Source of the DNA: Myxococcota bacterium
GTDB lineage: Bacteria > Myxococcota_A > UBA796 > UBA9615 > JAKLKC01
NCBI GenBank assembly: GCA_023150875.1
Contig: JAKLKC010000024.1
Location: 9,119 to 73,118 of the forward strand
Direction of reading: 5' to 3'
DNA: 64,000 bases
Part shown: piece by piece, positions 2,484-57,881 of the stretch
Layout of the letters: every line of letters begins with the position of its first letter
Position numbering within the stretch: the first letter of the stretch is position 1
The notes under the pieces: model-generated
What the model was told of the DNA's origin: nothing
The model's input: only the letters and a program-made list of their open reading frames with translations
The model's database searches: none
Made by a program: the position numbers and the translations under genes

Positions 2484-2741
2484 GCCGCCCGGCTCCCCTG
2501 CGACCGGGGGGCCAGCGTCGGATCGCCGTCGCGCTACCGTCAATCCCGCGTCGCTCCTGGGACCCGGCCGGGGATGGGTGGGCCGGGATCCCGACCTTCG
2601 GTGAGGCCGCCACCGGGCCGGAGGGCGAGCCCCGTCGCGGGGATCCGGTCCTCCGCGCCCCGAATGGCCCCTCCCTCCCCCGGTGGCACGCATCCTGCTC
2701 GGGTGGGGAGCGGCCGAGGACGGCCACCGGAGGCGCCAAGA

Positions 2742-3317
2742 ATGCACTCCATCGGCCCAGCGCCGGCCACCGCCCCCGATCGCACCTGGCACCGGGTGGA
2801 GACGTGGCTCCGCGTCCGCGTCGACCCCGCGCCGCCCCAGGGGGAGGGCGACGCGCCCCGGGAGGCCCTGACCGAGGTCGCCCGGACCTGCTACGGCGTG
2901 CTGGACTCCCTGCGCCACCTGCGGCTGGAGCTCGACTCCGCCGACCGGGTGGTCGCCGAGCGGATCCAGCGGTTCTGCGCCGCGGTGGCCTCGGCCATCG
3001 AGGACCTGGAGGCCCGGGCCGACGGCGAGGGCTTGCCCCCTCCCTCCCCCGGGGACGTCTCCGGCGGGGGCCTCGGGGTCGCCTGCCCCCGCGCCCACGC
3101 CGTGGACGACCGGGTCCGGGTGGCGTTCCGGCTGGAGGAGACCGCAGCGCCCCTGACCTTCCGCGCCGCCGCCCGGGTGGCCTCCTGCCGCCGGGTGGAT
3201 GCGCCCCCCGGGTACCGCCTGGGGCTGGAGTTCGTGGACCTGGACGAGGAGTCGCGGGAGAGGCTGGTGGCGTTGCTCTTCGAGGTCCAGAGGCGGCAAC
3301 GGAGGGCGGAAAGGTGA
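2742..3317 (+). CDS. PilZ-domain protein. Possible c-di-GMP-responsive flagellar brake of the YcgR type.
   Basis: DVSGGGLGV matches the PilZ DxSxGG motif. The C-terminal beta-barrel pattern RVRVAFRLEE...GYRLGLEFVDLDEESRERLVALLFEVQRRQRR is PilZ-like. The upstream RxxxR motif is degenerate (RIQR, RVVAER). The internal ATG at 2742 is favoured over the 2574 extension, which is Pro/Arg-rich. Confidence 0.55.
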   Translation: MHSIGPAPATAPDRTWHRVETWLRVRVDPAPPQGEGDAPREALTEVARTCYGVLDSLRHLRLELDSADRVVAERIQRFCAAVASAIEDLEARADGEGLPPPSPGDVSGGGLGVACPRAHAVDDRVRVAFRLEETAAPLTFRAAARVASCRRVDAPPGYRLGLEFVDLDEESRERLVALLFEVQRRQRRAER

Positions 3318-4891
3318 GAGATCCTGCTGACATCCGGCGGGGCCGGGCCGGCGCGGCGGCCCTGGCGGCCCTGGCGATGGGGGCGACGGCGGCGACGGCG
3401 GCGGCGGGGGACGCGCCTCCGATCCGCGCCGGGGGCGGGGTCGCCTGGGCCCTCCAGGGGAGCGGCGCCACCGCGACCGCCTACCCGGAGCCGGGGACGG
3501 TCGAGGGCATGGCCCGCGTGGGCTGGGTCTTCGCCCCGTTCGCCGAGGCGTCCCTGCGGGTGGGCTTCCAGGTCCGGAAGGGCCTGGCCCACGACGTCGA
3601 GAGCGGGCTCGCCGTGGACGGGGCCGCCTCTCACCTGTACCAGGTGCCCCTGCTGCTGGGGGTGGACCTGCGGCTGGACCGCTCCCCCCGCCAGCCGGTG
3701 GTCCCCTACGCCGGCGCGGGGCTGACGTCGGTGCTGTGGCACGAGGCCGTCGACGGCGGGCCCGCCCGGACCGGGGCGGACTGGGGGCCCTACGCGGTGG
3801 TGGGGGTGGGGATCCGGCTGGTGGGGCGGGAGGGGGCGTGGCGGGGGAGGCCGGTGCGGGGCCGGTCGTTGGCGGACGTGCTCCTGAACGTGGAGGCCGT
3901 CGCCGCCCGGGCCGACTCCTTCGGGGACGGCATGGACCTGTCGTCCCTGCGGGTCATGGCGGGGCTGACGGTGGCCTTCTCGGAGGGCGGGGATCCCGGG
4001 AGGCTGGCGATCCGGGCGCCGCCTCCCCCCGAGGCGCCGCCGCCGCGTCCCCCCTCGCCTCCCCAGGTGACGGGGATCCTGGCGGAGGGGGGAGAGCCCC
4101 GCTACCAGCTCGACGTGGGAGGGGAGTGGGGGGTGGTGCCGGGGGCGCTGCTCAGAATCTTCCGGGCGGTGGAGGTGCCCACCGCCGACGGCAGGCCGGC
4201 GCCCCCCCTCATGCATCCGGTGGGTTGGATGGAAGTGGAGTCGGTGGGCCCGGGGACGGCCCTGGCCCGCCTCCGGGCCTTGGAGCCCGGCCAGAAGCCG
4301 AGGATCGGGGACCGCCTGCTGGGGAGCGGCGCCCTGGGCTCGCGCCCGGCGACGGCGGAGATCCGGGTGGCGGCGGACGAGGTGCTGGCGGGGGGCGGTG
4401 AGCCCGGAGCCAGCGGCCTCGCCCTGTCGGCGTGGGCCGGGCGGATGGCGCGGGTGGAGGGGCTCGTCACGGTGTCGGTGCGCCTGCCCGCCGCGCCGGG
4501 CATGGGGGAGGCGATGGCCGCTCCCACCGACCTCACCCGGGTGGACGGGGAGGGTGCCGAGGGGGGAGAGGGAGTGCGGCTGGTGGGGATCGAGAGGAAG
4601 AGGGACGCCGCCACCGTCGCCCTGGAGGGGGCCCGGAGCCTCGCGGCGGCGCTGGCCGGCACCCTGGGCATCCCGGCGGAGCGCGTGGTCGCCATGGTGG
4701 AGCCCCCCGATCCCGGGGGCCTGCCGGGGGGCGAGGTGGTGGTGCGGGCCGAAGGGGTGACCTGGTCCGGCACCGAGGGCGTCCCCGTGCCCGAGCCCGA
4801 CCGGCGGCCCGCCCGGAAGGGGCCCAGGAAGAAGCCGAAGGAGGACCGGGAGGACGCCGTCGGGGGCGAGGTGGTGGTGCCCTTGAGCTGA
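3314..4891 (+). CDS. Secreted protein of unknown function. Signal peptide, OMP-like beta-rich N-domain, Pro-rich linker, C-terminal domain.
   Basis: GTG at 3314 overlaps the upstream stop (GTGA) with GGAGGG upstream. The N-terminus RRGRAGAAALAALAMGATAATAAAGD is signal-like. A PPPPEAPPPRPPSPP linker follows. The 2246 ORF-track start is a 5' extension. Confidence 0.55.
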   Translation: MRDPADIRRGRAGAAALAALAMGATAATAAAGDAPPIRAGGGVAWALQGSGATATAYPEPGTVEGMARVGWVFAPFAEASLRVGFQVRKGLAHDVESGLAVDGAASHLYQVPLLLGVDLRLDRSPRQPVVPYAGAGLTSVLWHEAVDGGPARTGADWGPYAVVGVGIRLVGREGAWRGRPVRGRSLADVLLNVEAVAARADSFGDGMDLSSLRVMAGLTVAFSEGGDPGRLAIRAPPPPEAPPPRPPSPPQVTGILAEGGEPRYQLDVGGEWGVVPGALLRIFRAVEVPTADGRPAPPLMHPVGWMEVESVGPGTALARLRALEPGQKPRIGDRLLGSGALGSRPATAEIRVAADEVLAGGGEPGASGLALSAWAGRMARVEGLVTVSVRLPAAPGMGEAMAAPTDLTRVDGEGAEGGEGVRLVGIERKRDAATVALEGARSLAAALAGTLGIPAERVVAMVEPPDPGGLPGGEVVVRAEGVTWSGTEGVPVPEPDRRPARKGPRKKPKEDREDAVGGEVVVPLS

Positions 4892-5012: not shown

Positions 5013-6692
5013 TCAGGGCTGTCCGGCGCCTTCCACCAGGTTCGAGAGCTGCTCGGCCGAGAGGAGATCGCGCGCGGCTGCCTCCTCGACCAGCTCCAGC
5101 CAGCGGTGGCTCCACGGCCGATCACCCAACCGGGGTCCCCCGAGTCCGTTCGGCTCGGGGAACGGAAGCCGGAAGGTCCCGGACCACGCAAGCTCGACTG
5201 CCTGGGAGGAAGCCTCCTCCCAATCCCGATGCTTGCCGGAGGCAACGAGGGCGGCCAGCCTGCCCCGGACGTCGTCCAAGTGCAGGTGATTGAGCAGGTG
5301 CGCGCAAGCGGTGCGGGGTGTGACGCCGAACGCGAGGGCGACGTCCCGCGCTGCTGCGCGGAGGCTGTCATCGTCGATGCCCGCACGGGGGATCTCCAGG
5401 ATCTGGTTCATCCTGTCCCGAGGTGCCAGGAAGTACACCGAGAACGCATTCGCGAACGCCTCGCTACGGCTGCGCGGGTCCTCTGAATAGCCGCAGGCGC
5501 CCTCCGGATCCCCCGCGACGACGTGCCCGAGGAGGTGCCCGATCGCGAACCGGAGGCGACCTGGCCCATGGAACGCCCAGTCCGACCCGATCACCAGGGT
5601 TGGTTGCCCAGCCACGCCGGATGACCACGTCCCGAGGGCCTTGGGGCTTGGGAGCTCGCCGGCGGCGACGTCGAAGCCGATCCCGCGAACGAATTCCATG
5701 AGGTCGTCGATGTCCGGCCGTTCCCTGTGGAACACCCTTCTTCGAAGCTCGTTCGCCGCGAGCTCCGCGCGCTTCCAGACCTGCGCGTAGTTGCTGTTCG
5801 ATCCGTCGCGCCGGATTTCGGAGATCTGCCTTGCCGCTTCCCACCAGCGCCGGAGGGGATCCGTGCTCGCCACCCGGCGGGAGAGTGCCCCGAGTTCGTC
5901 GGCGAACCTCATCGCGACACGGTTGAACGCGATGGAGGACCGCCGGATGACCTGCGGCGTCAACCAGTTCTTCCGGGCGTCGTTCAAGGGCTCCCCGGCA
6001 ACCTGCATCGCCTTCCGCAGTGCCTCGAACCCGGCGCTCGCCGTGACCGCCCAGGGCGTGTCGAGATCGGGCTCGTGCGAGGTCGCGAGATCGGCGGCGG
6101 CGAGGAGTCGTCGGCCGATGGTCGGGTCCTCCGACATCGCTTCGAGGCCGCTCCGGTTGAATTCCGAAAGGAGTTCGCCCGCGCCAGACCGGAGACGGGA
6201 GCGGAGCTCGGCGACGACCGCCGCCCGCGGCACGTACCGCTCGCCGAGATCTTCGGCCAGCGCGAGCCGGGCAGCGCTGACCAGCGGACTCCCTTCGAGC
6301 AGGCCGTCCGCGCGGACCAGACGTCCCAGTCGCTCCAGCGGATCTCCAGGCCGGAGGGCGGTCAGGATCTCGTTGGCCGCCTCGCGGCGGCGAATCCTCT
6401 CGACCGCGCCGTGGTCCACGAACCGGATGGCCGGGGGCTCCCTTGCGTCCAGCAGGGGCACGCGGCGCCGCTGCCAAGGCGCTGGGCTCGGCAGGTCGGT
6501 CCACGGGCCACTCCTCGGGTCCCGCGGACCCTCCGAATCGTATCCGAGGAGGGTACCCGTGCTGGTCTCTGCGACGGGAATGAACCAGTCGCCCGTTGCT
6601 TGCCGGAACAGCAGGACCCGAGCGGGCCGCCCTACACTGTCGCATGCGTGGACGTGCGTGACCACCCATCCCTGGGCTGGGCGCCCCCTCAT
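5013..6692 (-). CDS. 559-aa protein with a C-terminal ImmA/IrrE-family (M78, COG2856, DUF955) metallopeptidase-like domain. The HExxH motif is non-canonical (HLLGH). The roughly 400-aa N-terminal region is uncharacterised.
   Basis: RLRFAIGHLLGHVVAG...EAFANAFSVYFLAP matches the ImmA/IrrE signature (FtiaHELgHlllh...E.eAnrFAaelLmP), but Leu replaces the catalytic Glu. ATG at 6692 overlaps the upstream stop as ATGA, and GGAGGGAG lies immediately upstream. The region has lower GC. Confidence 0.65.
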   Translation of the reverse strand: MRGRPAQGWVVTHVHACDSVGRPARVLLFRQATGDWFIPVAETSTGTLLGYDSEGPRDPRSGPWTDLPSPAPWQRRRVPLLDAREPPAIRFVDHGAVERIRRREAANEILTALRPGDPLERLGRLVRADGLLEGSPLVSAARLALAEDLGERYVPRAAVVAELRSRLRSGAGELLSEFNRSGLEAMSEDPTIGRRLLAAADLATSHEPDLDTPWAVTASAGFEALRKAMQVAGEPLNDARKNWLTPQVIRRSSIAFNRVAMRFADELGALSRRVASTDPLRRWWEAARQISEIRRDGSNSNYAQVWKRAELAANELRRRVFHRERPDIDDLMEFVRGIGFDVAAGELPSPKALGTWSSGVAGQPTLVIGSDWAFHGPGRLRFAIGHLLGHVVAGDPEGACGYSEDPRSRSEAFANAFSVYFLAPRDRMNQILEIPRAGIDDDSLRAAARDVALAFGVTPRTACAHLLNHLHLDDVRGRLAALVASGKHRDWEEASSQAVELAWSGTFRLPFPEPNGLGGPRLGDRPWSHRWLELVEEAAARDLLSAEQLSNLVEGAGQP

Positions 6693-7450
6693 GCTCCCTC
6701 CGCGAGGGTCCGGACGAAGCGTGAGACCTCCTCCCGGATCGGTGGGACTCCTGCCTTCCGTCGGACCTGGGAGAAATGCGCCCCCACCCTCCACGCCGTC
6801 GCTTGGAGGGCAGCCAGACCCCTCAACCAGTCCGAGCGGGCGAGCCGGTCATCCTCGGGATCGATGAACACGGCGAGGAGCATGTCGTCCAGGACCAAGG
6901 CACCGTCGAAGCGTGCCTCGGGCGTGGTAAGCCAGTCGAGCGTGCAGCCCGCCTGGAACACGCCGGCCGCATCGGACGCAGAGGTCGGCTCGAATCCCAA
7001 GTAAGAGTCCAGGTCCCGAAAGACCGTCGCCAGGTGCTTGCCCATGTAGGACTCGTCGCCGGGTGATGGCAGGGACCAGGTGCCCACGACGGCCGGACCT
7101 ACGCGCTTGGCCGCTTCCCGGGAGTCCCACGGAGACGACGTTCGAGATGCTCGCGCCCGATGGATGGGACCGAACAGCAGGACGACGGGTGGATCGAAGT
7201 TCGGTGATCGCGCGAACGAAGCGAACACCGACCGATCAGTCCCGATCTCCTTCCTCCTCTCCTTGGAGCCCGGAGGTGCGAGCACCAGTCTCGGAGGGGC
7301 ACCCTCGATCCGCGGGGACTCGCCCATGCGATGGACCAGCGGCAGCGCAGGAAGACACTCGAAGTCGCTATCCGCCCAGCCCCCATCCGGCGCCCGGATG
7401 GATGTCCGATGGGCGCTGAGCATAGCAGCGATGTCGAACGCGTCCGGCAT
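6689..7450 (-). CDS. Hypothetical protein (253 aa). First gene of the two-gene operon with the ImmA/IrrE-like protein.
   Basis: An ORF with codon bias sits in a lower-GC block. Its stop overlaps the start of the downstream gene (ATGA). I recognise no domain. No clear SD precedes the ATG at 7450. Confidence 0.5.
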   Translation of the reverse strand: MPDAFDIAAMLSAHRTSIRAPDGGWADSDFECLPALPLVHRMGESPRIEGAPPRLVLAPPGSKERRKEIGTDRSVFASFARSPNFDPPVVLLFGPIHRARASRTSSPWDSREAAKRVGPAVVGTWSLPSPGDESYMGKHLATVFRDLDSYLGFEPTSASDAAGVFQAGCTLDWLTTPEARFDGALVLDDMLLAVFIDPEDDRLARSDWLRGLAALQATAWRVGAHFSQVRRKAGVPPIREEVSRFVRTLAEGA

Positions 7451-9653: not shown

Positions 9654-9941
9654 GTGTCCGTCGTCAGCACCCGTGTCCTGAAGGATCGTCTGTCGCACTA
9701 CCTGCATCGGGCCGAAGCCGGGGAGCGCATCGTCGTCCTGCGCGATGGTCGCCCGGTGGTGGCGCTCGTTGCCGCGGACCGGCTCCCGGAGCCGGACGAC
9801 GACGCCATCCTTGCCGACCTTGCGGCCGAGGGCCTGGTGGAGCTGCCGGTGGCGGGGAGCGCCAGGGGTTTCGCCGGACCGGTGCTGCCGGATGACGGAC
9901 TCCGGCCCCTGTCCATGACCGTGATCGAGGACCGGACCTGA
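9654..9941 (+). CDS. vapB: Type II antitoxin, Phd/YefM or VapB-like.
   Basis: GTG start with AGGAGG 5 nt upstream. The N-terminus SVVSTRVLKDRLSHYLHRAEAGERIVVLRDGRPVVALV is the Phd/YefM antitoxin fold signature. The stop overlaps the vapC start by 1 nt (TGATG). Confidence 0.7.
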   Translation: MSVVSTRVLKDRLSHYLHRAEAGERIVVLRDGRPVVALVAADRLPEPDDDAILADLAAEGLVELPVAGSARGFAGPVLPDDGLRPLSMTVIEDRT

Positions 9942-10384
9942 TGTTGTTCGCGGACACGAGCGCCCTGGTGAAGCTGTACGTTGCCGAGGCGGGGTCCGAG
10001 CAGATGCGTGCGTGGACGGATGGCCAGTCCGTAGCGGTCAGCGTACTCGCGTACGCCGAGGCGCACGCGGCGTTCGCGCGCCACCGGCGCGAGGGGCGGT
10101 GGGACGATCAGGCTCACCAGCAGCTTGCCGGCCAGTTCGACGCAGAGTGGTCCGGGCTCGTCCGGGTGCCCCTCGCGGATGCCACCCTTTCCACCATCCC
10201 CGCGCTGTGTGCGAGGCACCCCCTTCGCGCGGGGGACGCGGTCCAGCTTGCCAGTGCGCTGGTGCTCTCCGCGCGCGGGCTCCCGGTGACGTTCGCGAGC
10301 GCCGACGCGCGCTTGCTTGCAGCGGCACGAGGCGAGTCGCTGGCGGTCCGGGATCCGTGTGCACAGGTGTTGCCAGCGCGGTAA
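9941..10384 (+). CDS. vapC: PIN-domain toxin VapC.
   Basis: MLFADTSALVKLYVAEAGSE is a PIN N-terminus with a conserved Asp. An acidic residue pattern follows later. The gene is coupled to the upstream antitoxin. Confidence 0.75.
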   Translation: MLFADTSALVKLYVAEAGSEQMRAWTDGQSVAVSVLAYAEAHAAFARHRREGRWDDQAHQQLAGQFDAEWSGLVRVPLADATLSTIPALCARHPLRAGDAVQLASALVLSARGLPVTFASADARLLAAARGESLAVRDPCAQVLPAR

Positions 10385-10524: not shown

Positions 10525-13500
10525 ATGCGCGTCCACCCCGTGTCCCCGGCGGTGCCGGGGCGTCGCTCCGCATTCCGCATCGCGGTCGCCGCCGCGTCCG
10601 CGCTCCTCGCGTTCCGGGGCGGTGAAGCGGTCGCGGTCCAGGCGTACCTGGAGGACCCCACGGCCTACGGGGACGCCGCGGCGGCGGTGCCCCGGGGGAT
10701 CGAGCAGGCGGTGGGCTTCGAGGAGCCCGACGTCTCCCTCGGCCAGGTCCTCACCACCCAGTACACCGCCCGGGGCGTGACGTTCGCGGGCAGCCGGTCG
10801 TTGCGGATCGTCGACAACGTCGAGGAGAGCTGGCCCCGGGGGCTCCTGGCCGCCGGCATCGACTTCGGCGCGGGGACCAGCGAGATCCGCATCGCCTTCC
10901 TCGTCGATCCCCAGCACGCGGTCTCGCTGTACGTGCTGGACGTGAACCAGCTCGTCGTCGAGGGGTGGGCGGGCGGCGTGGTGGTGGAGAGCGCCACGGT
11001 CTCCCCCGGCGCCGAGGACCTGCCCTCGGGACGCTTCCTGGGGCTGGTGTTCGACGGCCCCGTCGAGGAGGTGGTCCTCCGCTCCGCCACCGTCTCCGAC
11101 GGCTTCGGCATCGACGACCTCGCCTTCGCCGAGCCCGGGACCATCGACAACGACGGGGACGGCCAGACCGACGCCGAGGGCGACTGCGACGACCTGGACG
11201 CCGCGGTGGACGGGGTCGACGGGGACGGGGACGGCGTCACCTCCTGCGACGGGGACTGCGACGACGCCGATCCCTCGGTCCATTCCGGCGCGGTGGAGGC
11301 CTGTGACGGCCGGGACGACGACTGCGACGGCCAGGTGGACGAGGGGTTCGACGCCGACCTGGACGGGTACACCACCTGCGCGGGCGACTGCGACGACACC
11401 CGGGCCACCGTTCGCCCCGGGGCGGTGGAGACGTGCAACGACCGGGACGACGACTGCGACGGCGCGGTGGACGAGGGGTTCGACGCCGACGGCGACGGGT
11501 CCACCACCTGCGGCGGCGACTGCGACGACGGCCAGGCGTCCCGCCACCCCGGCGCCCCCGAGGCGTGCGACGGGGTGGACCAGGACTGCGATGGGCAGGT
11601 GGACGAGGACTTCGACGCCGATGGCGACGGCCACCGGACCTGCGACGGGGACTGCGACGACGGCCGGGCGGACGTGAACCCCGGCGCCGCCGAGACCTGC
11701 GACGGCGCCGACCAGGACTGCGACGGAGAGGTGGACGAGGGCTTCGACGGCGACGGAGACGGCTTCGCCGCCTGCGACGACTGCGACGACGCCGATCCCG
11801 CGGCGCACCCCGGCGCGGCCGAGGCGTGCGACGGGCTGGACCAGGACTGCGACGGCCTGGTGGACGAGGACTTCGACCAGGACGGCGACGGCGCGACCTC
11901 CTGCGACGGGGACTGCGACGACACGGACCCGTGGATCGCCCCCGGCGCCTACGACGCGTGCGGCGACGGGGTCGACGGGGACTGCGACGGGACCGTGGAC
12001 GACGGCCGGGCCGAGGAGTGCAATGGCCTGGACGACGACTGCGACGGCCTCGCCGACGAGGACTTCGACGCCGACGGGGACGGCTTCACCACCTGCGAGG
12101 GGGACTGCGACGACGCCTCCCCCACCACCTGGCCCGGCGCGGAGGAGCTGTGCGACGGGGTGGACCAGGACTGCGACGGCGACGTGTCGGAGGAGGTCGA
12201 CGGGGACCAGGACGGCCAGGCCCCCTGCGGGGGGGACTGCGACGACGCCACCGCCGGGATCGGCCCGGGACGGTTGGAGATCTGCGACGGGGAGGACCAG
12301 GACTGCGACGGCCGGGTGGACGAGGGCTGTGTCGACACCGGCGAGCTGACCGCCACCTACGAGCTCCGGGGGGGCGGCTGCCTGTGCGCGGGGGCCGGGG
12401 CGGGCGCGACGCCCCCTCCGGCGGCGGCGCTGGCGGCGGCCCTGCTGGGGCTGGCGGGGGCGAGGCGGCGGCGGGGGAGGGCCGGGACCCGCGCCGCGGG
12501 CGTGTGGGGGGCCGCGGCCCTGGCCCTGGCGCCCTCGGCGGCGGCCGCCGGGGAGGACGAGGGACCCGACCGGGGCCTCCCCTCGGAGCGCATGGAGCTC
12601 CCCATCGACGGGGGCCCCTTCGCGGTGGGGGAGGCGGCGGAGATCCTGGAGCCCCTGGAGGTCCGGGCGGCGCTGCTGGTCCACTACAGCCACGCGCCCC
12701 TGGTCTCCTGGGACGCCGTGGCGGAGGAGGAGCGGGAGGTCGTGGCCCACCGGGTCGGGGCCGACCTGGCGGCGGGGATCGGCCTGGCCCCCTTCGCCTC
12801 CCTGGGGATGCGGCTGCCGGTGACCCTGTGGCAGGCGGGGACCGATCCCGACTCCCTGGAGTCCCTGTCGGGGGCGGGGATCGGGGACCTCTGCATCGCG
12901 GGGCGCTTCCGGCTGCTGGAGCAGGGGCGCGCGCCCATCGGCCTGGCGGTGGGGGTGCCCCTGACGGTCCCCACCGGCAACGAGGGGGGGTGGCTGGGGG
13001 AGGCGGGTCCAAGCTTCTCGCCCCAGGTGACGGTGGACCGGCGGGCGGGGAGGCTGCGGGTGGCGGGCACCCTGGGGGCGAGGCTCCGGGCGCCGGAACA
13101 GGTGGGCACGGTGACCCTGGGCCCCGAGCTGCTCTACCGGGCGGGGCTGGCGGTGGACCTGGCGCGGGGGCTGACGGTGGCCACCGAGGTCGCCGGGGCG
13201 GTGGGGGGCGCCGCCGACAACAGCCCCCTGGAGTGGCTGACGACCCTCGCCTGGACGCACCCCCGGGGCGTGGAGGCGGCGGCGGGGGCGGGCTTCGGCG
13301 TACTGCCCGGGTTCGGCACCCCCGACGTCCGGATCTACGCCCGGGTCGCGTGGAACGTGCCGGTGGGACGGCGGCCCGCGAGCCCCCGCGCCCCCGTGGT
13401 CCTGGAGGAGGGGGCGGAGGGCGCGGAGGTCGCGGCGACGGCGGTGGCGCTGGTGAAGGAGAGGCGGCTGCTCCTCGCCGACGCCGTGCGGTTCGACGTG

Positions 13501-13860
13501 GGGCGCTCCGCCATCGAGGCGTCGTTCCGTCCGGCGCTGCTGGCGGTGGCCCGGTGGCTGGGCGCCCACCCCGAGGTGGCCCGCCTGAGGATCGAGGGAC
13601 ACGCCGACCACGTGGGGACCGACGCCTACAACCTGGACCTCTCCCGGAGGCGGGCCTCGGCGGTGCGGGAGTTCCTGGTGCGGGAGGGCCGCGTGGACCC
13701 CCTCCGCCTGGAGGCCCGGGCGTTCGGCGAGGGACGCCCCGCGGCGTCCAACGGCACCGAGGAGGGGAGGGCGGTCAACCGGCGCGTGGAGTTCTTCGCC
13801 TCCGCCCCGCCGCCCGAGCCCGCGCCGACTGCCCACGCCGGGGACGACGGGGGCGGCTGA
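10525..13860 (+). CDS. Secreted Cys-rich repeat protein (MopE-like putative metal-binding motif, about 11 repeats) with a C-terminal OmpA/MotB peptidoglycan-binding domain. 1111 aa.
   Basis: Signal peptide MRVHPVSPAVPGRRSAFRIAVAAASALLAF. The repeat unit DGDGxTTCxGDCDDxxAxxxPGAxExCDGxDxDCDGxVDEGFD recurs. The C-terminus NLDLSRRRASAVREFLVREG...NRRVEF is the OmpA-C signature. Confidence 0.75.
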   Translation: MRVHPVSPAVPGRRSAFRIAVAAASALLAFRGGEAVAVQAYLEDPTAYGDAAAAVPRGIEQAVGFEEPDVSLGQVLTTQYTARGVTFAGSRSLRIVDNVEESWPRGLLAAGIDFGAGTSEIRIAFLVDPQHAVSLYVLDVNQLVVEGWAGGVVVESATVSPGAEDLPSGRFLGLVFDGPVEEVVLRSATVSDGFGIDDLAFAEPGTIDNDGDGQTDAEGDCDDLDAAVDGVDGDGDGVTSCDGDCDDADPSVHSGAVEACDGRDDDCDGQVDEGFDADLDGYTTCAGDCDDTRATVRPGAVETCNDRDDDCDGAVDEGFDADGDGSTTCGGDCDDGQASRHPGAPEACDGVDQDCDGQVDEDFDADGDGHRTCDGDCDDGRADVNPGAAETCDGADQDCDGEVDEGFDGDGDGFAACDDCDDADPAAHPGAAEACDGLDQDCDGLVDEDFDQDGDGATSCDGDCDDTDPWIAPGAYDACGDGVDGDCDGTVDDGRAEECNGLDDDCDGLADEDFDADGDGFTTCEGDCDDASPTTWPGAEELCDGVDQDCDGDVSEEVDGDQDGQAPCGGDCDDATAGIGPGRLEICDGEDQDCDGRVDEGCVDTGELTATYELRGGGCLCAGAGAGATPPPAAALAAALLGLAGARRRRGRAGTRAAGVWGAAALALAPSAAAAGEDEGPDRGLPSERMELPIDGGPFAVGEAAEILEPLEVRAALLVHYSHAPLVSWDAVAEEEREVVAHRVGADLAAGIGLAPFASLGMRLPVTLWQAGTDPDSLESLSGAGIGDLCIAGRFRLLEQGRAPIGLAVGVPLTVPTGNEGGWLGEAGPSFSPQVTVDRRAGRLRVAGTLGARLRAPEQVGTVTLGPELLYRAGLAVDLARGLTVATEVAGAVGGAADNSPLEWLTTLAWTHPRGVEAAAGAGFGVLPGFGTPDVRIYARVAWNVPVGRRPASPRAPVVLEEGAEGAEVAATAVALVKERRLLLADAVRFDVGRSAIEASFRPALLAVARWLGAHPEVARLRIEGHADHVGTDAYNLDLSRRRASAVREFLVREGRVDPLRLEARAFGEGRPAASNGTEEGRAVNRRVEFFASAPPPEPAPTAHAGDDGGG
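11150..12330. repeat. Tandem repeats of about 105 nt, imperfect, encoding the Cys-rich MopE-like motif.
   Basis: GACGGCGAC...TGCGACGACGCC...GAGGCGTGCGAC...GACTGCGACGGC units recur about 11 times at the protein level. Confidence 0.6.
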
Positions 13861-13871
13861 CGGCGGACCCA

Positions 13872-14807
13872 CTACTCCCCGTTGATCCGTCCCTCCCCGA
13901 GGCGGCGCCGGATGGACGCCCACCCGGACCGCAGGCGGCTCCCGGCGGTCGCGTCCCGGGGGGCGAGAAGGGCGGCGGGATCGAGGAGGGGGTAGAGGCG
14001 GTCCGCCAGGCGGATCCCCACCGCGGAGAACGCCATCCCGGCGAAGATGTCGATGGCGTAGTGGTAGCGGCAGTACACGGTCGAGACCGTCACCCCCAGC
14101 GTGAACGGCAGGCAGACCCAGGCGTAGCGCCGGTCGTAGGCCCGCAGCGAGGCCCAGCAGGTCCACGCCACGGCGACGTGGGAGCTGGGGAAGGCGCCGC
14201 CGAAGTGGTGGGTCTTCGCGTAGATGTAGTCCATGACCGCGACGAAGGGCGTGGCCTGTAGGTAGTCGTCGCCCCGCAGGGCGTGGGGACCCGCCACCGG
14301 GAGCGCGATGTAGACCAGGGAGGCCATGATCCACACCACCGCGAGGCGGATCTGCAGGCGGTAGAGGGCGGGGTGGCTCCGCAGCTCCAAGGCGAGGGCC
14401 GAGCCCGCGATGATGGGGAAGTAGCTGAAGTAGAAGAGGTGCATGGCCTCGTTGAACCAGGGCCACGGGAGCGCCTCCCGCATCCACCACGCCGGCTCGA
14501 CGCCGAGGAACAGCCGCCTCTCGAACTCCCGGAACTCCGGGTCCAGGAACACGGGGTGCAGCAGCCCGCTCAGGCGGCAGATGTCCAGGAACGCCTGGGG
14601 CATCAGGAAGAAGCCGTAGTTCCGGCGGAGCAGGCGGAGGGGGCCCGGGAGCCGGTCGTAGGTGGCCGCCAGCAGCACGATCCCCCCCGCCACCAGCAGG
14701 TAGCCCACCACCGAGCTCCCCACCACCGCGGTCGGCGGGACCACGAAGGAGTGCACGCCGGCGAGGAACACGCACCAGCCGACGATGAGGAGGTCAATCG
14801 GTCCCAT
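13872..14807 (-). CDS. PAP2-superfamily membrane phosphatase.
   Basis: FPSSHVAVAW (PSGH-like) and CRYHYAIDIFAG (SRxxxxxHxxxD) are the PAP2 motifs. Several TM helices. Start ATG at 14807 (MGPIDLLIVGW) with GGGGGAA upstream. Confidence 0.75.
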   Translation of the reverse strand: MGPIDLLIVGWCVFLAGVHSFVVPPTAVVGSSVVGYLLVAGGIVLLAATYDRLPGPLRLLRRNYGFFLMPQAFLDICRLSGLLHPVFLDPEFREFERRLFLGVEPAWWMREALPWPWFNEAMHLFYFSYFPIIAGSALALELRSHPALYRLQIRLAVVWIMASLVYIALPVAGPHALRGDDYLQATPFVAVMDYIYAKTHHFGGAFPSSHVAVAWTCWASLRAYDRRYAWVCLPFTLGVTVSTVYCRYHYAIDIFAGMAFSAVGIRLADRLYPLLDPAALLAPRDATAGSRLRSGWASIRRRLGEGRINGE

Positions 14808-15224
14808 CGGGATTCCCCCGTCAGGTCCGGCCGTAGCCCAGCAATCATCGGGCCAGGGGGCCGGCGGGCCGGGCCGGCGGTGGCCGGCGGGCACAGGCGG
14901 GTTCTATGACAATTCGGGGGCGTTTTAAAGACTCCGGCGCCCCCCGTCCACCCCCGGGGGAGTGGAAGGGCCCCGCCCGTTCCCGGAGCGCCCCCCCGCG
15001 GGGCCGGCTCCGTTCCCGGGGGGAGCGCGGAGGGGACCCCGTCTTCGGCGTTGACACCCCTCGCCCCGGGCGCGATCATCGCGCCGCGCGCGGTCGCGAC
15101 GGCCGCCGCGATCCGCCCCGAGGGGGGGCATCCGTCCGTTCATCCGAGTCCGGCACCCGAGCCCACCGGCGCGATGGCGCGCGCGGCGGGCCCGCGGCCG
15201 TCCGGACCCCAAGGGAGGCCGCTC

Positions 15225-15932
15225 ATGCGCCGCAAGCTCTTCGCGTCACTGTCGTTCGCCGCGTGCCTGGTCGCGGTCCCCGCGGTCGTCATGGCCGGCT
15301 TCCCCCGCCCGCCGGTGCCCGGCGGGTCCGGTGGGGGCACGGGGATCCAGGCGGTCCTGGACCTGGGCGAGGGGATCTCGTTCCGGTTCTACGTGGCCGC
15401 CCGCGCCGCCATCCGCGCCGAGTTCGTGCTGATGGAGGCCGCCGGCCTCGCCGAGAAGGTGGCGGTCCTCGAGAAGAAGCTCTCGAACATCGAGAACTCC
15501 TCCGACGACGTCGAGAAGGCCGCGGTCGCCGGCGAGGTGATGAGCGAGACCGACAAGCTCGCCGAGGAGTCCCGCCAGGCCCTCGCCAAGAAGGAGAGCC
15601 TCTCCGACGACGAGAAGGAGCAGATCCGCAGGGCCGACCAGCTCCACTTCTGGGCGGGGCTCAACCTCGCCGCCATCGGGCTCGACATCGCCGCGGCGTC
15701 GGTGAAGGTGACCAACGCCATGCTCCACGCCAACCCCATCGCCGAGGCCACCCAGCTCGGCAAGCTCAAGCGGATCGACAAGGCGTTCAAGACCGCCGAG
15801 TCGAACCGCAAGGCGTTCGAGTCCTCCAAGAAGCGCAACGACGAGCTGATGGACCAGATCTACAAGGCCCACCAGATCGAGAAGCCCGACATGGCCTCCG
15901 TGAAGGCCGAGGACAAGGAGCCCGAGCTGTGA
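15225..15932 (+). CDS. Secreted coiled-coil protein of unknown function (235 aa). First gene of a three-gene secreted-protein operon.
   Basis: ATG with AAGGGAGG 6 nt upstream. Signal peptide MRRKLFASLSFAACLVAVPAVVMA. Lys/Glu-rich helical remainder. GC is lower than the surroundings. Confidence 0.55.
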   Translation: MRRKLFASLSFAACLVAVPAVVMAGFPRPPVPGGSGGGTGIQAVLDLGEGISFRFYVAARAAIRAEFVLMEAAGLAEKVAVLEKKLSNIENSSDDVEKAAVAGEVMSETDKLAEESRQALAKKESLSDDEKEQIRRADQLHFWAGLNLAAIGLDIAAASVKVTNAMLHANPIAEATQLGKLKRIDKAFKTAESNRKAFESSKKRNDELMDQIYKAHQIEKPDMASVKAEDKEPEL

Positions 15933-17500
15933 GGCCCGCCTCCGCGACCCGCCGGCTGGCGTCGTTCCTCGCCCTGGTCCTGGCCGCGCTGTGGATCGGC
16001 GCCCCCGCGGCCCTCGCCGCCGAGGTCCCCTTCGTCGGGCAGGGCAAGGCGAACTACCTCAAGAAGAAGGAGGCGATGCGCGCCCGCTCCGAGGCCCTGG
16101 ACTCCGCCACCGCCGACGCCGTCAAGAAGGCGCTGCCCCGCTACGTCCCCAAGGACATGCTGGCGGAGCGCCAGGAGGAGATCGAGTCCCAGGTGCTCCC
16201 CCTCTCGGTGGGTTTCGTCAAGCGCACCGAGATAGTGAAGGAGGAGGACGTCGACAAGTGCTACACCATCACGGTGAAGGCCTGGATCGACGAGGCCACC
16301 CTGAGGCAGAGCCTGGACGGCCTCGGCTTCAGCCAGGACGTCTCGTCGCGGCGTTCCATCGCGGTGATCGTCGACGAGTTCTTCCAGGGGGACCAGAAGC
16401 CCCAGGACCCCAACACGCCCATCCTCAAGAAGAAGGTGGACATCGAGAAGTACGACGAGTCGTACGACCGCTCGGTGGACGCCAGCCACGACCGCTCCGT
16501 CGACGCCCGGGCGCGCTCGTCGGTGGCGGCGTCCCACGACGCCTCGGTGAACGCCTCGGCCCGCACCTCGGGGGCGGTGGTCACCGGGCGGGGGGCGGCC
16601 TACGGCTCGGCGTCGGGCAGCGTGAGCGCCGCGGAGTCCGACCGCTACGCCGCCAGCCGCAGCGCCTCCTACTCCGAGAAGGAGAAGGACCGCTACAAGG
16701 AGAGGGAGAGCGCCCGCGCCAGCGCGTTCAAGATGCACGTCGAGGAGTACTTCCCCCCGACGCTGCTCCAGATCAAGAGCCCCGATCCCGCCAGCCGCGC
16801 CGCCTTCGAGAAGCGCATGCTGGAGCGGGACGTGCGGATCGTGGACCAGAAGACCGTGGACGCCGTGCGCTCGGAGCTGATCGGCCCCAAGGGGGTCGTC
16901 ACCGACGTGCTCAAGGACGAGCAGATGCTCGCCAAGAAGGCGATGAGCCTCGGCGAGAAGTACGGCGCCGACGCCATCGCCGTGGGCGTGGCGACGGTGG
17001 TGTACGAGGGCGAGAAGGGCGGCGTCCACAGCTCCAAGACGGGCCTCGCCATCCGGGTGATCGACACCGCCACCGGCGACGTGCTCGCCAGCCAGATCGC
17101 GGTGCAGGGGGGCGTCTCCTCCAGCGCCACCGCCTCGGGCCAGAGCTCCGCCACCCGGGTCGGCGACGTGCTGGGCCAGGAGATCTCCGAGCAGCTCTTC
17201 CAGTACTGGAAGAACCGCGACGAGAAGGGCATCGAGGTCACGGTCCGGATCGCCGGCCTCGCCAACACCCGCCAGAAGCTCGCCGCCCTGGACGCCATCA
17301 CCGCCACCGAGGGGGTCGTGGAGGTCGAGGAGAGGTCCTACGACAACCAGAACGGCCTGGTGGAGTTCGTCCTGACCACGAAGCTGAACGTGGCCAAGGT
17401 CAAGAACGGCGTGCTGAGGTCCCTCTACAAGGTCGAGGGGTTGGAGGGCCTGGAGGAGGAGATGTCCCTGGGCGCCAACATCAGCCTCGTCCGCCACTGA
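15929..17500 (+). CDS. Secreted protein (523 aa) with a low-complexity Ser/Ala/Asp middle and a C-terminal alpha/beta domain. Possibly LPP20/CsgG-like.
   Basis: GTG overlaps the upstream stop (GTGA). Signal peptide RRLASFLALVLAALWIGAPAALAAE. The C-terminal region AIAVGVATVVYEGEKGGVHSSKTGLAIRVIDTATGDVLAS resembles LPP20/CsgG/LpoB-type lipoprotein domains. That resemblance is an inference. Confidence 0.5.
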   Translation: MRPASATRRLASFLALVLAALWIGAPAALAAEVPFVGQGKANYLKKKEAMRARSEALDSATADAVKKALPRYVPKDMLAERQEEIESQVLPLSVGFVKRTEIVKEEDVDKCYTITVKAWIDEATLRQSLDGLGFSQDVSSRRSIAVIVDEFFQGDQKPQDPNTPILKKKVDIEKYDESYDRSVDASHDRSVDARARSSVAASHDASVNASARTSGAVVTGRGAAYGSASGSVSAAESDRYAASRSASYSEKEKDRYKERESARASAFKMHVEEYFPPTLLQIKSPDPASRAAFEKRMLERDVRIVDQKTVDAVRSELIGPKGVVTDVLKDEQMLAKKAMSLGEKYGADAIAVGVATVVYEGEKGGVHSSKTGLAIRVIDTATGDVLASQIAVQGGVSSSATASGQSSATRVGDVLGQEISEQLFQYWKNRDEKGIEVTVRIAGLANTRQKLAALDAITATEGVVEVEERSYDNQNGLVEFVLTTKLNVAKVKNGVLRSLYKVEGLEGLEEEMSLGANISLVRH

Positions 17501-17586
17501 CCCGCGCCGGGGAGGTCGGCGCTCCGCCTCCGGCCGGGCGCCGGCCTCCCCTCCCCACCGCCCTTCGTCCCCCTTCCGAGGTCCCC

Positions 17587-19758
17587 ATGCCCTTCCCGCC
17601 GGCCCTCCTCCGCCCGCTCCGCCGCCCGTCCCTGCTCCTGGCGCTGCTGGGGCTCGTGCTCGCCGCCGCGCCCGCCCGGGCCGAGGTCGCCCTGCGCGCC
17701 CTGAGCCCGGTGATGGTCTCGGAGGGAATGCGGAAGGCCGCGGACCCCGCTCTGCGGGCCGCCCTGGAGGAGGTCGCGGGCGGTGCCCTCGCCGGTGCCC
17801 TGGACGCCCGGTTCCCCGAGGCCGCCGCCGCCGGCCGCACCCGGGAGGAGTCGTCGCGGATCCAGCTCGAGCTCCAGGACCTGCTCCACCTGGGCCTGAG
17901 GCTGTCCCGGGCCCAGCTCCGCACCATCCACTTCGGCGAGGACCGCACCGACTTCCAGCTCTCGGTGACCGGCACCCTGTTCATCGTGAACCTGGGCACC
18001 GGCGAGGTCCTGGACGCCCGCTCCGTCACCTCGAAGACGACCTCCAAGAAGTCGGGGCGTGTGGCGGCTCCGCCCCGGGACGTGGTGGAGGCCCTGGCGG
18101 AGGCGGGGGCGAAGCAGCTCGTGGGGGAGCTGGCGGGGCGGCTCGCCAAAGACTTCCGGCCCGGCCGCATCGAGGCCCGGGTCGCCGACACCCACCGGGG
18201 GGCGCTGGTCCTGGCCCGGGGCTACATGGACGGCGCCTACAACGGCGAGGTCTTCCAGCTCCCCTCGGACGACGGCAAGCCGCCCCGCACCTTCCAGGTC
18301 TTCCAGACCCAGGAGAAGCTCAGCCTCGCACGGCCCACGTCGGCGGGGGGGCTGCCCAAGGCGGGGACGGTCCTGGCGCGGATCGGCATGACGGCCAGCG
18401 CCGGCAACACGCCCCGGCTGATGGTGGCCCGGGCCGAGGGGGAAGGGGAGGCGGTGCGGGGCGTGGCCCCCGAGGACATCGACCAGTGGGCCGAGGACCT
18501 GCTGGCCGACTCCGGCTTCGTGGTGCTGCCGTCGGCGGGGGACCTCGTGCGGGCGCAGCTCGCCGAGGCGGCCCGGGTGGACGTGGCCGAGAAGGCGCTG
18601 GTGGGGGCGCAGGTGCAGCCGGACCTGCTGGTGGTGGCGCGCATGGAGAGGGCGACGCTGACCTCGTCCTTCGACGAGAAGACCTCGTCGGACCTTATGA
18701 TCGCCGAGGTGACGGCGTCCCTCTCCTTCGTGGACGTCCGCAGCGGCGCCGTGCTGTACGGCACCGACGCGACGGAGAAGCGGCAGGACTACGTGCAGGA
18801 GGGCGGCAAGCAGTTCGACGCCGACGACCTCTTCCCCGGCCTGGCCAAGGACGCGGTGCTGGCGGCGGCCAAGAAGGCGGCGGCGGGCTTCAAGCCCCGG
18901 CGCGCCTCGGCCAAGGCGACGGCGGCGACGCCGAGCCGCCTGTCGTGGTCGGTGCAGGACATCCCCTTCGGGGTGGGGACCGTCGCCGAGGTCTACCGGG
19001 GGGCCAAGGAGGTCAAGGACGGCAAGGGGGGCTCCCTCGGCTTCGTGGAGGAGCTGGTGGGCACGGCCCGGGTGGTGGAGTCGGACGGCAAGAAGGAGAA
19101 GGCGCAGCCGATGGTGCTGGCCACCGCCGCCGTCCCCGGCCTCCGGCTGAAGGCGGTGGCGGGGACGGCGACCAGCGACGCCCGCCTGGTGGCCCTGGGG
19201 GAGGTCCGCCTCCAGTCGTCCCCGGGCTCGGCGGTCCGGGTGCGGGTCGGGGACCGGGAGCGCGACCACGCCCGCACCGCCCTCTACGGCAGCGGCGCGT
19301 TCCAGGCGGTGGTGGACGGCGACCTGGCCCGGCGCCTGGACACCGCCTCGTCCTTCCTCAACTCCGGGGCCTTCGCCGCGGGGGGAGACGCCGTGGCGGA
19401 GGTGAAGGCGGCCTCCCCCACCCATCGCTGGGACGTCGAGGCGACGGTGACGGTGGGGGCCCTGGAGAAGAAAGGGGGCAAGCTGGCGCGCACCCTGCGG
19501 GCGGACGTCGCCGTCAGCCTGGTGGACGCCGAGAGCGGCCAGCCGGTGACCCTGAAGCGTCCCAACGGCGAGACCATGACCCGCTACACGAACTACTACC
19601 TGGAGCGGACCCTCTCCGCCCGCGAGAAGAAGGGGGTGGTCGCCGTGGGTCTCGCCGACGACGATATGCCCGCGGCGGTGGAGGTCCTGCTCCTGGACGC
19701 CTTCCGCGAGGCGGCCAGCCGCACCCGGAAGCTGGCGGACGCGGGCCAGTCCCCCTGA
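17587..19758 (+). CDS. Secreted protein (723 aa) of unknown function. Third gene of the operon.
   Basis: Signal peptide MPFPPALLRPLRRPSLLLALLGLVLAAAPARAEV. Repeated alpha/beta modules, for example RMERATLTSSFDEKTSSDLMIAEVTASLSFVDVRSG. No enzyme motif. Confidence 0.5.
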   Translation: MPFPPALLRPLRRPSLLLALLGLVLAAAPARAEVALRALSPVMVSEGMRKAADPALRAALEEVAGGALAGALDARFPEAAAAGRTREESSRIQLELQDLLHLGLRLSRAQLRTIHFGEDRTDFQLSVTGTLFIVNLGTGEVLDARSVTSKTTSKKSGRVAAPPRDVVEALAEAGAKQLVGELAGRLAKDFRPGRIEARVADTHRGALVLARGYMDGAYNGEVFQLPSDDGKPPRTFQVFQTQEKLSLARPTSAGGLPKAGTVLARIGMTASAGNTPRLMVARAEGEGEAVRGVAPEDIDQWAEDLLADSGFVVLPSAGDLVRAQLAEAARVDVAEKALVGAQVQPDLLVVARMERATLTSSFDEKTSSDLMIAEVTASLSFVDVRSGAVLYGTDATEKRQDYVQEGGKQFDADDLFPGLAKDAVLAAAKKAAAGFKPRRASAKATAATPSRLSWSVQDIPFGVGTVAEVYRGAKEVKDGKGGSLGFVEELVGTARVVESDGKKEKAQPMVLATAAVPGLRLKAVAGTATSDARLVALGEVRLQSSPGSAVRVRVGDRERDHARTALYGSGAFQAVVDGDLARRLDTASSFLNSGAFAAGGDAVAEVKAASPTHRWDVEATVTVGALEKKGGKLARTLRADVAVSLVDAESGQPVTLKRPNGETMTRYTNYYLERTLSAREKKGVVAVGLADDDMPAAVEVLLLDAFREAASRTRKLADAGQSP

Positions 19759-20195: not shown

Positions 20196-21611
20196 TCAGG
20201 GCTGCGCGAAGGCCGCCATGAAGGGCGCGCGCCCCGTCGGGTTGGCGCCGGTGAGGGTGCCCACGCTTCCGCCGAGGTCGAGGTCGTGCTCCATGAAGCC
20301 GGCCAGGACGACGGTGCCGTCGTCCGCCACGGCCATCATCGTGTTGAGGTTGTCGGCGTCCATCGGGTACAGCGCGCTCCAACGGGGGGCGCCGGTGGCC
20401 CCGTCGAAGGACGCGAGGAAGAGGGCGTCGCCCCCGGCGCCGGCGGCGCCGCAGCCGGCGTCGAAGTCCTCGTCGGCCGTCGTGGTGTTGCCGGCGACGT
20501 AGACGTTGCCCAGGGCGTCGAAGGCGACGGCCTGGACCTCGGAGTTCACGTAGCCTCCGAACCGGTGGACCCAGGCGAGGCCGCCTTCGTTGTCGTAGAG
20601 CACGACGTACCAGCCGTCGACCTGCCCGGTGTCGCCGCCGAAGTCGCTGGCCATGTAGCCGGTGCCCGCCATGGCCCAGTACCCCGAGCCGTGGCTCGCG
20701 ACCCGGTCGGCGGCGGGACCCTCGAAGGGGGCGAACATGTCCGGGACGCCGTCGGGATCCAGGCGGACGACGAAGCGGCCGCTCGGCGTGCCGATACCCA
20801 GGTCGACGCCGGACTCGCCCTCGGTGATCACGTAGGTGCCGCAGGCGTCCCCGGCGACGTCGTCGATCTCCTGCGTGGCCTCGTCACCCCACGCCCCGCT
20901 CCAGACGTGGTCGCCCGCGGAGTCGAGGCGAAACGCGGCGAGGTCCTTGCCGCCGCCGTGGGGGAGGGTCCCGCCGCCCAGGTCCACCGCCGCCTCGACG
21001 TAGCCGGCGAGCACCACGCCGCCGTCCCGCTGCACGACCATGCCCAGCTTGGTGAGGTCGTCGTCGTCCACGAGGACGCCGGTGCTCGCCCCCGTGCCGT
21101 CGGCGGCGGACAGGCGCCAGACCTCGTGCTTCACCGCGATCAGGCTCCCCGTATCATCGAAGTCGAGGGCCTCGATCCGCCAGATGTCGTCGCGCCGCCA
21201 CCGCTCGTTCCCCGTCGCCACGTCGACGGCGATGAGCGACTCGGCCCCCACGTAGGCGGTCCCCCCGTCCACGAGCAGAGCGAGGGGCTCCTCGCCCTCC
21301 CACGAGGTCGCCCAAAGCGCGGACGGCGAGCCGGAGCACGCCGCGCCGGCGTCGCCTCCGTGGCCGGTACCGTCGCAGGTGGACGGGGGCTCGGTGGTGT
21401 CGTCGTCGCCGCCGGTGTCGTCGTCGCCGCCGGTGTCGTCGTCGCCGCCGGTGTCGTCGTCGCCGCCGGTGTCGTCGTCGCCGCCGGTGTCGTCGTCGCC
21501 CCCGGCGTCGTCGTCGTCGCCGGTCGGGCCGCAGCCGGCCGGGCCCAGGGGGGAGGAGACGAGGGCGGCGAGGAGGAGGAGGGCGGGGGTAGGCGAGGAC
21601 GTGGAGCTCAT
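20196..21611 (-). CDS. Lipoprotein with an N-terminal acidic (DDDTGG)x6 repeat linker and a beta-propeller-like body.
   Basis: ATG at 21611 with GGAGGA 7 nt upstream. Lipobox LGPAGC. Then GPTGDDDDAGGDDDTGGDDDTGG... follows. No enzyme motif. Confidence 0.6.
   Translation of the reverse strand: MSSTSSPTPALLLLAALVSSPLGPAGCGPTGDDDDAGGDDDTGGDDDTGGDDDTGGDDDTGGDDDTGGDDDTTEPPSTCDGTGHGGDAGAACSGSPSALWATSWEGEEPLALLVDGGTAYVGAESLIAVDVATGNERWRRDDIWRIEALDFDDTGSLIAVKHEVWRLSAADGTGASTGVLVDDDDLTKLGMVVQRDGGVVLAGYVEAAVDLGGGTLPHGGGKDLAAFRLDSAGDHVWSGAWGDEATQEIDDVAGDACGTYVITEGESGVDLGIGTPSGRFVVRLDPDGVPDMFAPFEGPAADRVASHGSGYWAMAGTGYMASDFGGDTGQVDGWYVVLYDNEGGLAWVHRFGGYVNSEVQAVAFDALGNVYVAGNTTTADEDFDAGCGAAGAGGDALFLASFDGATGAPRWSALYPMDADNLNTMMAVADDGTVVLAGFMEHDLDLGGSVGTLTGANPTGRAPFMAAFAQP
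21404..21525. repeat. Perfect 18-nt tandem repeat (GTCGTCGCCGCCGGTGTC)x6, coding for DDDTGG on the minus strand.
   Basis: The repeat is seen directly in the sequence. Confidence 0.9.

Positions 21612-55943: not shown

Positions 55944-57881
<1,938 letters not shown>

Follow-up and report, generated by a model that had tools for sequence, protein, structure and literature searches.

What is the function of three consecutive genes for predicted exported proteins that share a contig with a flagellin gene, fliD and fliS of a Myxococcota bacterium? The genes, here named g1, g2 and g3, are part of a window of 64,000 nucleotides (nt), i.e., the whole stretch of DNA that was analysed (assembly GCA_023150875.1, contig JAKLKC010000024.1, positions 9,119 to 73,118), and the initial annotation had put them forward as possible components of a flagellar disk or ring. 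In our analysis, the cassette emerges as a clearly delimited, uncharacterised protein family for which a good structural model was obtained, and not as a demonstrated flagellar component. With a probability of about one half, its products could assemble into an oligomer that serves as a scaffold in the periplasm; by analogy with known proteins, this scaffold would most likely be shaped as a ring or collar and be docked on an envelope machine encoded elsewhere, whichever machine that may be. The genes, as read from their open reading frames (ORFs) and codon-position GC bias, are the following (aa, amino acids):

15225-15932, + strand: g1, 235 aa
15929-17500, + strand: g2, 523 aa, GTG start
17587-19758, + strand: g3, 723 aa

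The g1-g2-g3 operon and its predicted products

All three genes show a strong codon-position GC bias and follow each other on the same strand, forming a real, self-contained operon. At the first junction, the GTG start codon of g2 at 15929 overlaps with the TGA stop codon of g1 (GTGA), whereas g2 and g3 are spaced by 86 nt without overlap, so that the overlap on which the initial annotation based translational coupling is seen for g1/g2 and not for g2/g3. The sequence GAGG is located 8 nt 5′ of the g3 ATG; in the related locus L001 the g2 and g3 homologues abut, unlike the arrangement in the window. Two signals were found upstream of g1:

15051..15079, + strand: sigma-70-like promoter TTGACA-17-GATCAT, 146 nt upstream of g1
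15213..15218, + strand: ribosome-binding site GGGAGG, 6 nt before the g1 ATG, read from the sequence

The promoter matches the consensus at 10 of 12 positions, with 0.0 such matches expected in shuffled sequence, and a promoter of this sigma-70 type probably drives the operon. Neither a sigma-28 nor a sigma-54 consensus was found in the region upstream of g1 (14808-15224), and this combination speaks against a flagellar assignment. The operon is bordered by two genes of opposite orientation:

13872-14807, - strand: PAP2 gene, divergent, upstream of g1
20196-21611, - strand: convergent neighbour of g3, repeat-rich, matching the SBBP beta-propeller repeat

With a divergent gene on one side and a convergent gene on the other, g1-g2-g3 represent a stand-alone three-gene unit. 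The product of the convergent neighbour is itself probably exported and carries six tandem GGDDDT repeats near its N-terminus besides the SBBP repeat. As noticed before, the G+C content of g1 (68.4%) and g2 (69.2%) is slightly lower than that of the window (75.0%; g3, 74.6%), yet these values fall inside the spread among the genes of the window (65.8-80.5%). A protein identical to g3 is on record as “hypothetical protein L6R50_13780 [Myxococcota bacterium]”.

The strand, the reading frames and the signal peptides expected for all three products were confirmed, the latter by eye from the N-terminal sequences, in each of which a basic n-region is followed by a hydrophobic core and a cleavage site of the AxA type. 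Cleavage is predicted between MRRKLFASLSFAACLVAVPAVVMA and G in g1, between the segment ending in RRLASFLALVLAALWIGAPAALA and AEV in g2, and between the segment ending in RPLRRPSLLLALLGLVLAAAPARA and EV in g3. The hydrophobic N-termini are retained across homologues, and no conserved lipobox cysteine was seen in the N-termini of g1, g2 or g3, which is why the three are regarded as soluble exported proteins and not as lipoproteins. The operon is thus predicted to encode three Sec-exported soluble periplasmic proteins, which in this respect differ from the FlgO/FlgP-type lipoproteins with which the initial annotation had compared them.

For g1, a Pro/Gly-rich stretch follows the signal peptide, no known family is matched and the remainder of the protein is probably helical. 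For the coiled coil proposed in g1, the searches recovered nothing beyond weakly matching coiled-coil regions (SbcC, E 1e-3; COG6_N).

Modules of g2 and g3 and their structural relatives

Scans of g1, g2 and g3 against Pfam, NCBIfam and PADLOC returned no family (weak noise: COG6_N, SbcC and LipL46, the latter at E 4e-4), and 44 members of the g3 family, scanned against Pfam and NCBIfam, gave none either. Structural comparison was more informative. The AlphaFold model of g3, built from 44 sequences, reached a predicted local distance difference test score (pLDDT) of 88.7 and a predicted template modelling score (pTM) of 0.88, the latter indicating confident inter-domain packing. It is composed of five parts:

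17704..18162, + strand: module A, residues 40-192, with helices, three long strands and one long helix in the model
18163..18456, + strand: beta-barrel A, residues 193-290, motif RGYMDGAYNGEVF, in the model; weak MreC barrel matches
18457..18894, + strand: module B, residues 291-436, alpha/beta in the model
18895..19230, + strand: beta-barrel B, residues 437-548, TsaP beta-domain-like by sequence
19231..19755, + strand: module C, residues 549-723, alpha/beta in the model

When sub-alignments of g3 were compared by hhalign, the three alpha/beta modules turned out to be mutually homologous (A vs. B, probability 97.7%, E 2e-12; B vs. C, 96.2%, E 2e-9; A vs. C, 92.8%, E 4e-7), and g3 therefore represents an internal triplication. 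The two barrels are probably related to each other as well (61%, E 8e-5). The protein would accordingly be a rigid array, in which an alpha/beta module plus a beta-barrel occurs twice and is followed by the third alpha/beta module. An ORF at 53763-55934 of the window, also encoding 723 aa, was checked as a g3 paralogue and is not one.

In Foldseek searches against the PDB, the best matches of g3 were two structures of FlgT (3w1e, E 7.5e-9; 8z5n_0, E 9.7e-9; probability 1.00), with E-values about 1e4-1e5 times better than those of the next families HpaA, CsgG and LptE (about 1e-3). On the sequence level, positions 439-514 of the g3 family profile matched the TsaP beta-domain from Myxococcus xanthus (3jc8_Ta; E 3.8e-7), and the profile also gave weak matches to the barrels of MreC.

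The TsaP match raises the option that the cassette forms a TsaP-like collar around a secretin (of a type IV pilus, a type II secretion system or similar) or another outer-membrane ring complex, since TsaP is made of FlgT_C-like beta-domains forming spokes around PilQ (10.1101/2020.05.29.123786) and is the sole solved protein to which g3 is significantly related by sequence. This similarity is, however, limited to one barrel of about 75 residues, a domain shared with MreC, and LysM is absent from all three cassette proteins; in spite of the beta-domain similarity, g3 is hence not a TsaP orthologue. Myxococcota generally possess type IV pili, which fits a secretin collar, but no pil or gsp genes adjoin any locus examined. 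Taken together, we regard such a collar as improbable.

The AlphaFold model of g2, based on 7 sequences, has a mean pLDDT of 66.5, with 80-90 in its folded parts. Its organization is as follows:

16019..16333, + strand: residues 31-135, divergent FlgT_N-like alpha/beta domain, pLDDT 80-90, FlgT as top Foldseek match
16391..16771, + strand: residues 155-281, disordered S/A/D/R-rich linker, pLDDT <50, also judged by composition
16772..17497, + strand: residues 282-523, two C-terminal domains, pLDDT about 80-90, Foldseek matches to CsgG, GNA1162, PelC and LptE

The long S/A/D linker recognised initially is thereby confirmed and found to be rich in R, too; its 127 residues include 21 S, 20 A, 11 D and 11 R, and its length differs among homologues. 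Of the C-terminal domains, the first (residues 282-433) is of the LpoB/CsgG/LptE alpha/beta type in the model and comprises three long strands plus one long helix, and the second (residues 435-523) was modelled as a small beta-alpha-beta-beta-alpha-beta domain.

As for g3, the best Foldseek matches of g2 were FlgT structures, namely 8z5n_0 from the Vibrio LPHT-ring (E 3.8e-8) and the crystal structure 3w1e (E 7.5e-8), both with probability 1.00, followed by GNA1162, CsgG, CC_3750, CT253, PelC, LptE, Lpp20 and 9hmf. Lpp20 and 9hmf, an entry for the Campylobacter flagellar periplasmic scaffold, were reached at E of about 1e-2 only. The comparison with FlgP, FlgT and CsgG folds that the initial annotation had recommended consequently placed FlgT on top for both models (E about 1e-8), and of the LPP20/CsgG/LpoB-like modules it had described, the resemblance in fold is borne out by matches to CsgG, PelC, LptE and Lpp20 ranking behind FlgT, without any Pfam match. 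Between g2 and g3 themselves, hhalign detected no significant sequence relationship (a shared hairpin motif reached 6-10% probability).

Sequence searches with g2 gave a more nuanced picture of its relation to FlgT. The window g2 has no match to Pfam FlgT_N at E ≤ 1, the g2 profile found nothing among PDB sequences, and a profile search added one weak relative only, the DUF6175 protein P0011. Five g2-family proteins (P0002-P0005 and the L011 partner) match FlgT_N with 13.9-21.2 bits, below the gathering score of 28.8, in register and in the same region (residues about 30-116), and for the protein paired with P0045, a distant relative of g3, a clear, precomputed FlgT_N match is on record. Recurring as they do below the gathering score, these matches argue for remote homology of one domain and not for membership in the FlgT family.

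The alpha/beta domains also bear on two further options. A CsgG-like outer-membrane secretion or assembly channel, brought up initially as an alternative, would be in line with CsgG being among the Foldseek matches (E 1e-4 to 1e-3), but this similarity concerns a generic alpha/beta core common to LptE, PelC and LpoB. As both a lipobox and a Pfam match to CsgG are lacking and, within the window, no neighbour resembles csgE, csgF or a curlin-type amyloid subunit, we consider this option close to refuted. Quite improbable, though less clearly so, is an LpoB-like envelope tether or regulator, in which a globular domain of g2, by virtue of the linker, would extend across the peptidoglycan and control or anchor an enzyme of the cell wall. 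The layout of g2, in which 127 disordered residues link a globular domain to an LpoB/CsgG-type domain, would suit this role, as would a weak Pfam LpoB match (E 0.04) in the L010 partner of a g3-like protein, the weak resemblance of the g3 barrels to MreC, and a DUF1425/YcfL-family gene directly after the cassette in the P0030 locus, ycfL being the neighbour of lpoB in E. coli. These matches are all far below threshold, however, g2 is not a lipoprotein and so lacks the membrane anchor of LpoB, and no genes for penicillin-binding proteins or mre genes are adjacent.

Conserved gene order and the flagellar neighbourhood

The cassette is rare. A word-indexed homologue search of 5.8 billion proteins yielded six relatives for g2 and four for g3, and an exhaustive g3 profile search 102 representative clusters, of which 48 were reached at E<1e-10; almost all of them are 650-750 aa long, and none is named. 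Three loci were found in a scan of 185,579 GTDB species genomes and three short contigs in a JGI metagenome scan; a literature search on “FlgT-like” proteins returned nothing. The cassette is confined to few lineages, all of them uncultured and most of them rich in G+C. The protein lengths in these loci (aa in gene order, g3-like protein last) are:

L003: 234, 524, 729
L001/L002: 265, 508, 712
L004/L008/L009: 234, 520, 707
L011: 279, 602, 725
P0024 locus: 245, 483, 684
L017: 392, 713
L010: 395, 956
P0045 locus: 401 (FlgT_N), 754
P0030 locus (GCA_041443045.1): 538, 243, 703, the g2-like gene preceding the g1-like one

Gene order is kept at every locus with readable context; for the full g1-g2-g3 trio this extends to relatives with about 35% identity, and for the g2-like/g3-like pair to still more distant ones. 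In L001, L003 and L004, g1 homologues aligning over their full length with the window g1 are found directly upstream of the g2 homologue, and ORFs of 234-279 aa occupy this position in L008/L009, L011 and the P0024 locus, as judged by size and place; L001/L002 hold an extra g1-like copy of 213 aa (208 aa as called in L002). The conserved order across loci thus defines a core of a g2-like followed by a g3-like gene, usually with g1 in front, and the persistence of this pairing across diverged lineages suggests that the g2 and g3 products act together.

Even in L003, the closest relative, only the divergent PAP2 neighbour is retained and synteny with the window is lost immediately beyond it. The metagenome-assembled contigs L005 (=L003) and L007 are titled “uncultured Rickettsiales bacterium” and have a G+C content of 63-68%; L005 shares 66-71% protein identity and the PAP2 synteny with the Myxococcota-labelled source, and the taxonomic labels look unreliable.

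The genes behind the flagellar proposal lie at the start of the window:

2-125: 3′ end of a flagellin gene, opening the window
361-1704: fliD, window start region
1754-2134: fliS, window start region

The distance from fliS to g1 is 13.1 kb and not the 10 kb given initially. At least eight unrelated genes of mixed orientation lie in between; apart from a 115-aa ORF and PAP2, they account for PilZ and HExxH proteins, a protein weakly matching an outer-membrane beta-barrel, an AMP-dependent ligase, the PhdYeFM/PIN pair and a protein with MopE repeats and an OmpA domain. In the rest of the window, which harbours polysaccharide-synthesis, radical-SAM and housekeeping genes, no flagellar genes beyond fliC-fliD-fliS were found, and FlgO, FlgP, MotX and MotY genes are missing from the window altogether.

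This context has to be weighed when g2 and g3 are considered as FlgT counterparts in a flagellar accessory ring, i.e., an H-ring or disk-like collar around the LP-rings. FlgT is the top structural match of both proteins, FlgT_N similarity recurs in the g2 family and the P0045 partner, and the cassette proteins, like FlgT, are predicted to be Sec-exported and unlipidated (PMC7277832). The genome does carry flagellar genes, with fliC-fliD-fliS 13 kb off. Accessory flagellar genes can sit apart from core clusters; flgP and flgQ of Campylobacter, for example, are unlinked from the core flagellar clusters. On the other hand, flagellar Pfam families occur within 10 kb at none of about ten other cassette or core loci, the intervening genes of the window include a toxin-antitoxin pair, no Pfam match to FlgT_M or FlgT_C was obtained for the cassette proteins (the g3 family scan included), and lipidation as known for FlgP, FlgO and CsgG is not predicted. 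Moreover, the best sequence link of g3 to a solved structure leads to TsaP of the type IV pilus machine, and several host contigs are rich in Ser/Thr kinase genes, as is typical for Myxococcota, most of which probably lack flagella. Gene context, promoter and the other loci accordingly add no support to the resemblance in fold; the context offers no reason to favour the flagellum as the partner structure, and we consider a flagellar accessory ring unlikely.

More plausible as lineage-specific flagellar accessory genes than the cassette are those at ~2136-4891 on the fliS strand, which encode the 115-aa ORF product in a FliT-like position, the PilZ-domain protein (2796-3317) and the weak beta-barrel protein of 460-525 aa. 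Two Logan contigs of the same species (L015 and L016) also break at the flagellin gene where the window opens, which suggests that several near-identical flagellin copies collapse the assemblies of this species. According to a look-up of FliD, each assembly of this species that was read stops at the flagellin gene, which keeps the flagellar cluster upstream of it out of view. Further genes of the window are listed here for completeness:

5013-6794, - strand: large ORF with the HExxH-type motif IGHLLGHVV, by eye recalling ImmA/IrrE metallopeptidases
~9654-10384: PhdYeFM antitoxin/PIN toxin pair (coordinates shifted by 30 from L015)
10687-13860: protein of 1057 aa, containing eight putative metal-binding repeats of the MopE type and, at its C-terminus, an OmpA domain
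26741-52186: polysaccharide biosynthesis (WecG/TagA, Bac_transf, flippase, epimerase, DegT aminotransferase, GT2/NTP-transferase fusion), including three B12-binding radical-SAM genes (32104-33597, - strand; 39464-40912, + strand; 50594-52186, + strand)
56022-57881: second MopE/FG-GAP protein of the window

A periplasmic scaffold in comparison with known systems

How could the three proteins work together? In the scaffold that we favour, g2 and g3, probably along with a helical g1, would co-assemble in the periplasm into an oligomer. By analogy with FlgT and TsaP, this oligomer would most likely lie beneath the outer membrane as a ring or collar and dock onto an envelope structure encoded elsewhere. 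The disordered linker of g2 might allow one end of the protein to reach a second layer, e.g., the peptidoglycan or the inner-membrane side. The modules that g2 and g3 appear to employ are of the same kinds as in FlgT, which forms the H-ring around the flagellar LP-rings, and in the PilQ-spoke protein TsaP.

Several points weigh against this proposal. Ring formation by g2 and g3 is suggested by analogy only, and the alpha/beta module is a generic periplasmic fold which serves many jobs in LptE, PelC, LpoB and CsgG. When normalised to the target, the TM-scores that Foldseek gave g2 and g3 against FlgT are as low as 0.25-0.31, meaning that single domains superpose on FlgT and not the whole chain. 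Moreover, g1 is helical with some probability only, and the gene context points to no partner machine.

A narrower version of the scaffold, in which the cassette would be a new kind of periplasmic ring or cage and an independently evolved H-ring analogue around the LP-rings in this flagellated, Myxococcota-labelled lineage, is in our view distinctly unlikely. If true, it would add a new flagellar accessory structure outside the Proteobacteria, where FlgT is known. For the scaffold in general, if its partner were found, either H-ring-like motor elaborations would be extended to a new phylum, or a different machine would turn out to have a periplasmic collar of a new kind. It is by means of FlgT- and TsaP-type proteins that bacteria add periplasmic rings to high-torque flagellar motors and pilus secretins.

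Among the known systems, FlgT is the closest in structure. With its domains N, M and C, it builds a 26-mer H-ring which contacts FlgH and FlgI and scaffolds the T-ring (10.64898/2025.12.02.691832), and it is a Sec-exported protein known from Vibrio, Aeromonas, Pseudoalteromonas and Rhodobacteraceae (PMC7277832). FlgT (PDB 3W1E, 8Z5N) and the cassette proteins have in common that they are Sec-exported, periplasmic and non-lipidated, as predicted for the latter, and an N-terminal alpha/beta domain followed by beta-barrels is a further similarity. FlgT is, however, a single N-M-C unit of about 380 aa, whereas g3 is a triplication of 723 aa and g2 joins an N-domain via the disordered linker to two alpha/beta domains. 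The cassette furthermore differs from FlgT in being placed outside a flagellar cluster, without FlgO, FlgP, MotX or MotY nearby.

TsaP (3JC8 chain Ta), whose two C-terminal domains CI and CII, both of them FlgT_C-like, surround the PilQ secretin as spokes (10.1101/2020.05.29.123786), resembles g3 in its periplasmic location and its repeated FlgT-like beta-domains. Apart from the missing LysM and the absence of adjacent pil genes, g3 departs from TsaP by three extra alpha/beta modules. Residues 282-433 of g2 and modules A-C of g3 share a two-layer alpha/beta core with LptE, PelC, LpoB, CsgG, GNA1162 and Lpp20-FlgP. The proteins of this group are single-domain outer-membrane lipoproteins, whereas g2 and g3 are multi-domain proteins without lipobox or Pfam match; likewise, neither a lipobox nor a Pfam match relates the cassette to the LPP20/FlgP proteins, which are outer-membrane lipoproteins of about 150 aa with an LPP20 Pfam domain. 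By these defining features, the cassette stands outside the FlgT, CsgG, LPP20 and TsaP families and presents their modules in a new architecture: the same building blocks recur in a triplicated protein of 723 aa, in a FlgT_N protein with its tether and in a probably helical partner, an arrangement which no family database covers.

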